A stretch of 8,847 nt of DNA from a virus. Taxonomy: Duplodnaviria; Heunggongvirae; Uroviricota; Caudoviricetes. The stretch covers positions 1-8,847 of the IMG/VR virus record IMGVR_UViG_2534681993_000021; one strand, 5' to 3'. Positions 4,221-6,996 of this stretch are shown piece by piece. Numbering within the stretch: position 1 is the stretch's first letter; each line of letters begins with the position of its first letter. Under the pieces are notes generated by a model. The model was given only the letters and a program-made list of their open reading frames with translations. It was not told the DNA's origin and ran no database searches. The translations under genes were made by a program, and so were the position numbers.

Positions 4221-6512
4221 TTAAAAATCAGCCTGACTCGGGATCAGTTTTTGCCAGATAGCTGAAACGTATTTTGCCTGGTAACGGGCGTCATCAAGTG
4301 CATTGTGGCGCTCACCTTCGAATGGGATAGCTGTTCTGGCATCGAAGTCTATGGCTTTCCCTAGCTCAACGATTGTGCGTACATCGCGATCGTTGTGGTA
4401 GTGCCAGGGGCAGGGGATCCCCTGCCGTTCGTATGAACGGCGTAAAATCACGTTGTCGAAGTTGGCTCCATTTCCCCAGACCTGAACAAAAAATTCACCG
4501 GAGTTTTCGGCGATAAATTCCCGCAATTGCAGTAGTGCATCATCTAACGGGATTTCATCGGTCAGAATGGCAGACTGCGCTTCACGTGATTGCTTCAGCC
4601 ACCATTTAATGACGTCACGATCAATAACTCCGCCAGCAGTATCCAGATCGATGGTCTTGCTAAATTCCGGTCCCATATCTCCGGTTTGTGGATCGAAAAA
4701 TATTGCGCCTATTGAGATAATCGCGGCATTGGGATTTTTTCCCATGGTTTCAATGTCGATCATCAGATGAATCCCCGCTCTGCTGGTGGATGTGAGATTG
4801 TGATGACCATTCACCTTAATTAAGGGATCTGCCGCCTCGCCAGTTTCACTATCGCTGGCGTGATGCTGATTGCCGCCAGTGTTCTCCTTGTGTGGATGTT
4901 CAGCGCCTTCCATTTCCTCCGGATCATTCTCCTGAGCTTCAACCTGATTCTCTTCATCGAATGTTTCCTGGTATGTTGCGTTGCCCATGACAGCGCCACA
5001 ATCGGGGCAGTTGCCGCCACCGCTCTGACCGCAGGCGGTGCAGACTTTTTCCGGTTCCTGTTGCACTACTGGTTCGGATTGTTTCGTTTCTGGCTCGTTT
5101 TGTAACGCATTTGGGCTGTTTTGTTCCGCTTTCTGGTCGTTCTGTTCCGTTTCTTGCTGGTTCTGATTCACTGAATCGCGGGTTTCAATCTCCTTCACCC
5201 ATTTCGGATCATTCGGGTCGCTAATCCCTGCAACAAATTCACCACGTGATACAGCAAGCAACTTATCGGCGTCAGGCTGGCTGATATTGGCTGCCTGCAT
5301 AATTTTGTTTACTTCGTCAGCGGTAACTTTTACCGGCTCCGGTTGTGCGATCGTGTCAGATGCACCAGTATTTTGTTGTGAACCTGAGTATGTACCGTTT
5401 TTGCGGGCAAAATATTCTTCTTTCGTGATTTCAGTAGCCCCTGCAGCCAGCGCCTTATTCAGACCAGAAAGTTTGTTTGCACGACCGTATTTTTCGCCAT
5501 CCTTGTCGCTGAAGAGGAAGTAGAACGGCCCCTCACGCTCTACAGATGATTCGACTTCCACTTTGCATTCGGTTTTTTCGTTGTCCTGAATTGCCGTTTC
5601 CACTGCATCAGTTTCTGGTACTGGCGACGAGAGAGTATCAGTTGCGCTCTGATTTCTTCCTTCATCTTCAAACACGCCCTTTGTAGTCAGGTATTCAGTA
5701 ATGTATTTGTTCAGTGCCACAGGGTCTTTGTGAATGTCGATCGGACGTTCACGGACAAGGCCAAAAATAGTCTGGCGGCTGTAGCGAAGCGCATCAGGTT
5801 GTTTGCGCATTGATGCGGAGATGCGCTTCCAGTCTTCGCGATCTCTGGCGATAACTTCATTTTTAGCCCAGCGAAGGATGCTGCCGTCAATGTTTCCGGC
5901 ATCCGCATCACCAGGCCAGAGATAGTAGGCCAGCTCCCTGTCCAGGGTTTTCCATGTCTGCTTGTATTCGCGATGAATGGCGGCAGTTACAGGAGGGATT
6001 TTTTCTGCTGGGTTTTCAGTGTGCTGTCGGTTGGCTTTGGCGCGGGCAAGATCAACAACAGACGTGTATTTTCCAGTCTCTTTGCGCTCTGCGTCCTGCC
6101 GTTTTTTCCAGTTACGTAATTCAGCCTGAATTTCGGGCCATTTGGTACCCGGCTTACATTTGTGTTTAACCCATCCGATAGCGAACAGTTTGCGTTCCGG
6201 ATACATAGCGTTAATTTCAGGCGTTTTCATCAGTGCTTCAACGATATGTCCGTCAAAGGTAGCCACGTCTTCTTGCAGTAATTCCTGCGCGTCAATCGCC
6301 ATATCAACGGTGATGTTTTCACATGTACCGAACTTAACCAGGACCGCGTTCTGTACTTCAAGGGACAGCTTGTCAAAATTGACGTTAATAGGATCGGATT
6401 CTGGTTCGACCGGAATAAAGGAAGCGGATTCCTCATCCCAGCGGTTTTCCTGCATATATTCGGTATCCCAGGAGTCGATAGCAGGGCGGGGCATTCCAGC
6501 GTTTTTCTGCAT
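4221..6512 (-). CDS. Large early-left protein with C-terminal DEDDh (DnaQ-like) 3'-5' exonuclease domain; likely exodeoxyribonuclease VIII (RecE) family N-terminal region
   Basis: The ORF track gives 819 aa from 6680. Exo motifs: DIE (D642, E644; nt 4749-4757), GANFD (D742), HNALDD (H792, D797). Zinc ribbon C547-x2-C550-x7-C558-x2-C561 (nt 4998-5042) sits in an acidic Q/N/E-rich linker. The first ~56 codons overlap the upstream gene and are Cys/Trp-rich, so I place the start at ATG 6510-6512; ATG 6453-6455 is an alternative. Confidence 0.8.
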   Translation of the reverse strand: MQKNAGMPRPAIDSWDTEYMQENRWDEESASFIPVEPESDPINVNFDKLSLEVQNAVLVKFGTCENITVDMAIDAQELLQEDVATFDGHIVEALMKTPEINAMYPERKLFAIGWVKHKCKPGTKWPEIQAELRNWKKRQDAERKETGKYTSVVDLARAKANRQHTENPAEKIPPVTAAIHREYKQTWKTLDRELAYYLWPGDADAGNIDGSILRWAKNEVIARDREDWKRISASMRKQPDALRYSRQTIFGLVRERPIDIHKDPVALNKYITEYLTTKGVFEDEGRNQSATDTLSSPVPETDAVETAIQDNEKTECKVEVESSVEREGPFYFLFSDKDGEKYGRANKLSGLNKALAAGATEITKEEYFARKNGTYSGSQQNTGASDTIAQPEPVKVTADEVNKIMQAANISQPDADKLLAVSRGEFVAGISDPNDPKWVKEIETRDSVNQNQQETEQNDQKAEQNSPNALQNEPETKQSEPVVQQEPEKVCTACGQSGGGNCPDCGAVMGNATYQETFDEENQVEAQENDPEEMEGAEHPHKENTGGNQHHASDSETGEAADPLIKVNGHHNLTSTSRAGIHLMIDIETMGKNPNAAIISIGAIFFDPQTGDMGPEFSKTIDLDTAGGVIDRDVIKWWLKQSREAQSAILTDEIPLDDALLQLREFIAENSGEFFVQVWGNGANFDNVILRRSYERQGIPCPWHYHNDRDVRTIVELGKAIDFDARTAIPFEGERHNALDDARYQAKYVSAIWQKLIPSQADF

Positions 6513-6996
6513 CCCAGTCTTTCTCAAGGCCTGATACCATGAAGAAACCGTTAGTGTTGCCATCAAATAATTCTGTTTCCAAATTTTTAAGCAATGCCTG
6601 ATGGACTCTTGCCAGGTATTCCGCCGGAATTTCGCCACGAATTCTGATGAGATTGTCATAAACAAACATGTTCCCCGCATATGGCGATTTTTCTTTCTTG
6701 TTTTTTAAACCAGCATCATGAGCAAACTGATCAATTTCTTCTTCCGTTGGTTTCGTATTGATGTTTTGCGCTGTCGTTTCTGCAATTTTATTTGCCACAC
6801 TCTCTGAGTCGTGTTTATTTATAGACGCACAGAAATACAATCCGGTAAACGCATCGCGCACATTACGAGCCATATTATCAGTGTCTTTTTTCGTTACCGA
6901 TTCCAATTCAAGTTCGTTCAGACGATGACGAAGTGTGTGTGCTGCAATCTCCTGGATTGAAGGAGGTAAATCTTTAAATTCCATCGTCAACCTCAT
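6433..6996 (-). CDS. Hypothetical early-left protein (183-187 aa)
   Basis: Protein-like composition throughout. The first ATG (6994-6996) overlaps the upstream stop by 1 nt (TGATG). The second ATG (6982-6984) has GAGG 6 nt upstream. No family recognised. The 3' end overlaps the exonuclease ORF in another frame. Confidence 0.6.
   Translation of the reverse strand: MRLTMEFKDLPPSIQEIAAHTLRHRLNELELESVTKKDTDNMARNVRDAFTGLYFCASINKHDSESVANKIAETTAQNINTKPTEEEIDQFAHDAGLKNKKEKSPYAGNMFVYDNLIRIRGEIPAEYLARVHQALLKNLETELFDGNTNGFFMVSGLEKDWDAEKRWNAPPCYRLLGYRIYAGKPLG

Follow-up and report, generated by a model that had tools for sequence, protein, structure and literature searches.

In the cryptic Qin prophage of Escherichia coli K-12, which has a dicA/dicC immunity region, ydfABC-dicF-dicB-ydfDE is expressed as one transcript from dicBp, which is repressed by DicA, a protein of 135 aa (PMC10448788). 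As far as the available text of PMC10448788 and PMC8835842 goes, DicB and DicF strongly inhibit cell division, YdfD is a lysis protein, and about 1% of K-12 cells spontaneously turn dicBp on, such dicBF+ cells apparently forming no colonies.

We analysed an 8,847 bp window that is the entire contig AJVW01000030.1 from the draft assembly GCA_000264015.1 of E. coli O26:H11 str. CVM9942. The window holds a piece of a lambdoid prophage, and the ends of the contig are repeated prophage sequence. In window direction the genes are a tail-fibre C-terminal gene, nleC, a dinI-like gene, int, xis, an exonuclease gene, a 183-aa ORF, DUF1391/ydfA, a DicA-like repressor gene, a DicC/Cro-like gene and ydaT; all window coordinates given here are for features on the minus strand. 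The head of the leftward operon resembles that of the Qin dicBF operon in having a 135-aa DicA-like helix-turn-helix repressor (7315..7722), which controls the operon concerned here (PMC10448788), a DicC/Cro-like gene and a ydfA-like (DUF1391) gene (6996..7148) as the first gene of the early-left (dicBF-type) operon. In intact relatives of the prophage the likeness extends through DicF, dicB, a DUF1482/ydfD-type gene and the exonuclease gene (Pfam YdfE_C and Rv2179c-like), followed by xis and int; in the window the excisionase gene (3900..4151) lies directly downstream of the exonuclease.

Two differences from Qin are apparent. A gene for a 212-aa protein, here called hyp212, takes the place of ydfB and ydfC, and the central dicF-dicB-ydfD part is deleted. 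Rfam did not find DicF in the window, although the sRNA was detected in an intact relative, and neither the ORF list nor the annotation of the window contains a DicB-like ORF. The locus works like a dicBF-type early-left operon and descends from one but, with dicF and dicB absent, no longer qualifies as one, and since the dicF-dicB-ydfD part has gone it encodes no division inhibitor.

The mechanical ORF list places an 819-aa ORF at 4221..6680 and a 187-aa ORF at 6433..6996, and the 248-nt overlap in different frames at 6433-6680 to which a sequence-only reading of the window had drawn attention is real. The 187-aa ORF becomes 183 aa when started at ATG 6984, which has a GAGG Shine-Dalgarno sequence and is the start used in the annotation of relatives; a look-up of the exact 187-aa protein came back empty. 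That reading had proposed either that the exonuclease starts at an internal ATG, leaving an overlap of 20-80 nt, or that a frameshift had split one longer ancestral gene. The two in-frame ATGs it named, 6512-6510 and 6455-6453, are both present, but its list lacked another, at 6494-6492, which marks the deletion junction and is the native Met67 of the exonuclease. Comparison with intact relatives indicates that the overlap is very probably the scar of a single 1,594-bp deletion in a dicBF-type early-left operon, which brought what was left of the two flanking genes together out of frame. The more general suspicion that the locus is a mutational lesion rather than a designed overlap is thus borne out.

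The downstream stump is an exonuclease gene without codons 1-66, with codons 67-823 and the stop codon retained (4221..6494), the encoded protein being 100% identical to WP_000048585.1. By BLASTP the 819-aa ORF matches residues 66-823 of this 823-aa protein at 100% identity and is unrelated before that point, and its residue 63 is the native Met67. No homologue has anything that corresponds to residues 1-61, and identity begins at residue 62, in agreement with the earlier impression that the first 56 or so codons look non-coding. Likewise, the exonuclease profile (phrog_2082) aligns with the ORF over positions 64-823 of 823 and with the intact protein over its full length. The C-terminal Rv2179c-like 3'-5' exonuclease domain is present (PF16473, E = 1.8e-66, residues 638-809 of the 819-aa ORF); a PDB search gave only a weak match, to the exonuclease domain. 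Some records carry the name 'exonuclease VIII' for such proteins, but this is a name only, and the domain detected has the 3'-5' Rv2179c-like fold.

What the ORF lacks is the conserved N-terminus (residues 1-66, MSKVFICAAIPDE...) and a start with its own Shine-Dalgarno sequence downstream of a DUF1482/ydfD gene: the native start is deleted and the upstream neighbour is the hyp212 stump. In five relatives, which share from 83% to more than 99% DNA identity with the window in this stretch and include the complete phage genome record Tritos, the exonuclease always has the N-terminus MSKVFICAAIPDE... and the gene order is always dicB - ydfD/DUF1482 - exonuclease - xis - int.

These comparisons bear on whether an internal ATG (6512, 6494 or 6455) is the natural start of the exonuclease, which would then overlap its neighbour by 20-80 nt. 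The GenBank form of the protein (EIL42478.1, 744 aa) does start at ATG 6453..6455, the native Met80, which precedes the stop of the 183-aa ORF by 20 nt and is backed by only a weak Shine-Dalgarno match, so one of the proposed candidates coincides with the annotated start; an identical 744-aa sequence is also found in some O145:H28 drafts. However, this ATG is not a natural start in the homologues. All those inspected begin 66 codons upstream of the remaining native sequence, with a conserved N-terminus and a good Shine-Dalgarno sequence of their own (predicted duplex -6.3 kcal/mol at the native start, against -2.7 to -4.0 kcal/mol at the internal ATGs), and the intact gene adjoins a DUF1482 gene upstream and not hyp212. 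The diagnostic 183-aa chimera has been recorded only once. We therefore regard a natural two-gene arrangement as very improbable. The 744-aa form is on record from nine contigs, O145:H28 drafts among them, and since the 183-aa chimera is recorded once although the hyp212 DNA of O145 is identical, the O145:H28 entries, which include GEE52934.1, GEF59912.1 and GEG58302.1, are probably start miscalls on intact genes, and not instances of the same deletion.

The upstream stump consists of 493 nt from the 5' portion of hyp212 (6492..6984; 164 codons and 1 nt; WP_000394548.1 family, phrog_2151), 100% identical to intact relatives, followed by 19 out-of-frame codons (APPCYRLLGYRIYAGKPLG) and TGA, where the hyp212 frame runs on inside exonuclease DNA (6433..6491). 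The 183-aa ORF (EIL42479.1) accordingly comprises residues 1-164 of the 212-aa protein and 19 unrelated C-terminal residues. It covers positions 1-165 of 212 in the phrog_2151 profile, where the intact protein covers 1-212 of 212, and thus falls short of full-length membership of the family by the C-terminal 48 residues. It is on record from one contig only. Sequence searches against Pfam and PDB pointed to no function of the 212-aa protein.

In favour of a frameshift, for example in an A5 run, that divided one longer gene are the adjacent, overlapping positions of the two ORFs on the same strand and the homopolymer within the overlap. The run, which had been placed at 6501-6506, is in fact 5 nt long and lies at 6502-6506. 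It sits in native hyp212 sequence and is unchanged there, the sequence through it being identical to that of intact hyp212, and for this reason the homopolymer explanation fails. Moreover, phrog_2151 and phrog_2082, the families of the supposed halves, are unrelated, in relatives the two genes are separate and lie 1,247 nt apart, and a fused ortholog was not seen among the matches. We assign next to no probability to a split ancestral gene. The comparison of orthologs, which had been suggested as a way of deciding between a fused gene and two separate genes with the same short overlap, gave a third outcome, as orthologs show neither and this contig carries a deletion. On the basis of these alignments, we conclude that the overlap at 6433-6680 is neither a functional gene overlap nor a frameshift-split gene.

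What the sequence comparison shows directly is the deletion itself, where it begins and ends, what it removed and which frames it joined. When a 951-nt probe across the overlap was searched by megablast against complete E. coli genomes, nt 1-559 matched 'DUF1391 / hypothetical protein' (up to 100% identity) and nt 544-951 matched 'exonuclease', the match splitting at query positions 544-559, and no single record among 5,426 genomes covered at least 80% of the probe. The best relatives of the whole window, NZ_CP037943.1 (99.4%) and O145 genomes (99.9%), also matched in two pieces with about 1.6 kb extra in the record, and near-identical prophages of complete genomes have 1,594 bp extra at the exact point of the junction. 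Breakpoints were set by base-by-base extension against two intact relatives, L001 and L003. The match on the hyp212 side reaches down to 6492 and that on the exonuclease side up to 6494, and the offsets of the two differ by 1,594 nt. The junction is therefore placed at 6492..6494, where both parental sequences have the same three bases, ATG, a microhomology that corresponds to the native exonuclease Met67. The parental sequences around this ATG are GAAAAACGCTGGAATG and GATAAACCTGGCATG, which agree at 7/8 positions ungapped or 13/16 with one gap. The sequence spanning the junction in the CVM9942 contig is GCAGAAAAACGCTGGAATGCCCCGCCCTGCTATCGAC, and the hyp212 3' end that follows the 6495 side in the intact arrangement is ...GTTGCTACATGG. 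Compared with L003, the exonuclease side differs at one position in 2,271 nt and the hyp212 side at none over 6495-7003 (about 500 nt), and with flanks so nearly identical the deletion must be recent.

The deleted segment (L003 6995-8588) contains exonuclease codons 1-66 with the ribosome-binding site, a DUF1482 (ydfD-type) gene recognised by Pfam, dicB (DicB Pfam match), the DicF sRNA (Rfam, 76.9 bits), a 69-aa ORF on the opposite strand and the last 48 codons of hyp212 (212-aa protein, phrog_2151). In intact relatives dicB, DicF, the DUF1482 gene and the 69-aa ORF occupy the 1,247 nt between hyp212 and the exonuclease, so that the exonuclease is preceded directly by the DUF1482 gene and not by hyp212. 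The segment is multi-copy in EHEC genomes, occurring in up to 9-10 places per genome.

With the junction placed, the make-up of the overlap can be given in full: 186 nt in which the exonuclease frame stays open back through hyp212 DNA, the 3-nt junction, and 59 nt of hyp212 frame in exonuclease DNA. The exonuclease frame is +1 relative to that of hyp212, and the stumps are joined out of frame. The first of these components, 6495..6680, forms a 62-codon 5' extension of the exonuclease ORF in an alternative hyp212 frame, for which the homologue comparison gave no counterpart. In intact L003 the same frame is an unannotated embedded 86-aa ORF. A stop-free run of 70 codons in the alternative frame arises in about 2% of codon-order shuffles and is thus mildly unusual. 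Because the 86-aa embedded ORF is already present in intact relatives, we consider the open frame to be an earlier accident and not a selected overlap. A genuine gene embedded in the alternative frame was considered and rejected.

The open frame also raises the possibility of programmed +1 frameshifting or some other form of recoding, since it extends over the whole 3' third of the hyp212 stump and ribosomes shifting by +1 at any point of 6495-6680 would make a hyp164-exonuclease fusion protein. No recognised slippery or shift-prone motif in the right frame was found in 6433-6680, however, and inspection of that interval revealed no recognised +1 site (a prfB-like CUU UGA with an upstream Shine-Dalgarno sequence). 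In the hyp212 frame the A5 run falls in the codons GAA AAA, which do not make an X XXY YYZ heptamer, and slipping by -1 would miss the exonuclease frame. In intact relatives the open frame leads nowhere, and the arrangement is conserved in none of the 5,426 genomes. Recoding is accordingly hard to credit, and the deletion scar remains our preferred reading of the overlap.

The intact arrangement was scored with a 1,994-nt probe (the deleted segment with 200 nt on each side, at least 80% covered) and was found in 274 complete E. coli genomes. The junction was found by megablast in 0/5,426 complete E. coli genomes, and a 37-mer across it had no exact match in JGI metagenome contigs or in GTDB species representatives. 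The conservation expected of functional overlapping genes is therefore not seen: none of the 5,426 genomes has the junction, and 274 have the genes 1.25 kb apart. From this distribution the deletion looks strain-specific. Two further candidates were set aside in the course of the comparison. The O26:H11 11368 reference was rejected as the parent as it has a different middle module (ydfA, ydfB) and IS insertions, and truncation of the exonuclease by an IS in O145 strains was rejected because the IS is on the far side of ydaT and leaves the exonuclease intact.

We also considered whether the junction might be an artefact of sequencing or assembly, the contig skipping 1.6 kb that is present in the CVM9942 chromosome. 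The junction comes from one short draft contig that ends in repeated prophage sequence, and it appears in no other record searched, whether among the 5,426 complete genomes or in the metagenome and GTDB scans. Moreover, copies of the deleted segment (dicB, DicF, ydfD and the 5' end of the exonuclease gene) occur in up to 9-10 places per EHEC genome. Against this, the two sides of the junction share only three identical bases (13/16 with a gap), far too few for an overlap- or k-mer-based misjoin, making misassembly unlikely, and both flanks are near-perfect copies of one prophage type, as would be expected of a true internal deletion. On balance an artefact is distinctly unlikely, and the junction, on record from this one draft contig, is probably present in the cell as well as in the assembly.

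A 3-nt microhomology at a junction free of filler DNA is the mark left by illegitimate recombination without RecA or by replication slippage. The flanks here are collinear with one intact reference, a short sequence is shared and filler DNA is absent, as in microhomology-mediated deletion. We infer that the 1,594 bp were lost by one of these two routes at the ATG microhomology. One product would be a 183-aa chimeric stump of 164 native and 19 junk residues. The other would at best be a weakly translated, N-terminally truncated exonuclease of 757 aa (from Met67, 6494) or 744 aa (from Met80, 6455). Because the remaining ATGs have weak Shine-Dalgarno sequences, the truncated protein would be poorly initiated unless it is started by termination-reinitiation from the 183-aa ORF, which may be possible given that the stop of that ORF (6433) is 20 nt past ATG 6455.

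For the lysogen, the K-12 Qin literature suggests that loss of the toxic dicF-dicB-ydfD module could be neutral or advantageous, since the module inhibits division or lyses the cell and dicBp is subject to spontaneous switching. Urea and high temperature are conditions that induce this promoter. A stronger proposal is that the deletion was selected as a 'detoxifying' rearrangement, which would have removed the killing module and kept xis, int and a shortened but, by prediction, catalytically intact exonuclease under dicBp, the last reinitiated from the 183-aa ORF. We consider this proposal unlikely.

In practical terms, EIL42479.1 (183 aa) and EIL42478.1 (744 aa) should be annotated as truncated remnants, and neither as an overlapping pair nor as evidence of a novel start, and it would be wrong to read the 819-aa ORF as a protein. 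The junction could serve as a marker for strain CVM9942.

Compared with the intact 823-aa exonuclease (WP_000048585.1; phrog_2082; TRITO_27 of Tritos, 'exonuclease VIII'), the version in the window is 100% identical over residues 67-823 and has a complete Rv2179c-like/DnaQ-type domain, whereas it has lost the conserved residues 1-66 together with the start codon and the Shine-Dalgarno sequence. CVM9942 would also be one more lysogen whose lambdoid prophage has lost the host-toxic DicF/DicB/YdfD module. The few shared bases, the filler-free junction, the truncation of both flanking genes and the removal of host-toxic functions are all features of deletional prophage decay and microhomology deletion (for general background, the available text of PMC3105296), and compared with known cases nothing is unusual except that the allele is absent from the other genomes searched. 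The locus is thus a case of ordinary deletional prophage decay that has yielded a misleading ORF overlap: the allele is new and the kind of event is known.

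The GenBank annotation of the prophage contig starts the exonuclease at the ATG at window position 6455, giving a 744-aa form (EIL42478.1) on the minus strand (window 4221–6455). The identical 744-aa sequence is on record from 9 contigs, including drafts of E. coli O145:H28 (GEE52934.1 and others), and the records other than that of the CVM9942 contig itself are most likely start-codon miscalls on intact genes. In intact relatives the 212-aa gene harbours, in its +1 frame, an unannotated ORF of 86 aa; at the intact relative locus L003 it lies at 8514–8774 on the minus strand, equivalent to window 6495–6680 and beyond. 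Its frame runs for 70 codons without a stop, a length with a P of approximately 0.02 in codon-order shuffles, and the embedded ORF is probably due to chance.

Whole-window matching showed that the match to O145 relatives begins at approximately window position 2533 and continues upward only. To the left of the equivalent point these relatives carry the bacterial gene rspB, whereas the window, L003 and L006 (the locus of E. coli O26:H11 11368) carry phage right-end genes there (tail fibre, nleC and dinI). Because of this difference, the int-bearing prophage appears to have its left end (att) at position ~2533, and window 1–2532 resembles the right end of a second prophage, either neighbouring or in tandem. 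Within the latter segment nleC (808–1794, plus strand) encodes a type III secretion effector zinc metalloprotease with an HEIIH motif (Pfam Peptidase_M85), flanked on one side by a gene for a tail-fibre C-terminal region (34–378) and on the other by a dinI-like gene (2165–2407, minus strand).

Near the dicA-like gene, window 7293–7323 forms a palindrome with a perfect 13-bp stem, AAAAGATAACGCA-TTGAT-TGCGTTATCTTTT, which overlaps the stop of that gene and lies upstream of ydfA. This element could serve either to terminate transcription in both directions or as an operator for the dicBp-like promoter.

Matches to the best nleC-carrying relatives, H58 and H59, end at approximately position 8502, within ydaT (8020–8571), while O145 relatives match on to 8847, which marks a putative mosaic breakpoint inside this YdaT-family gene. 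Over window 7004–7150 the DUF1391 gene ydfA carries a cluster of 13 substitutions relative to L003 and none relative to the intact O145:NM locus L001, consistent with a small recombination patch. At L006 (2885–8425), from the O26 reference strain, the homologous int and xis are disrupted by insertions of IS600 and ISCro1, an independent route of decay for the same prophage end.
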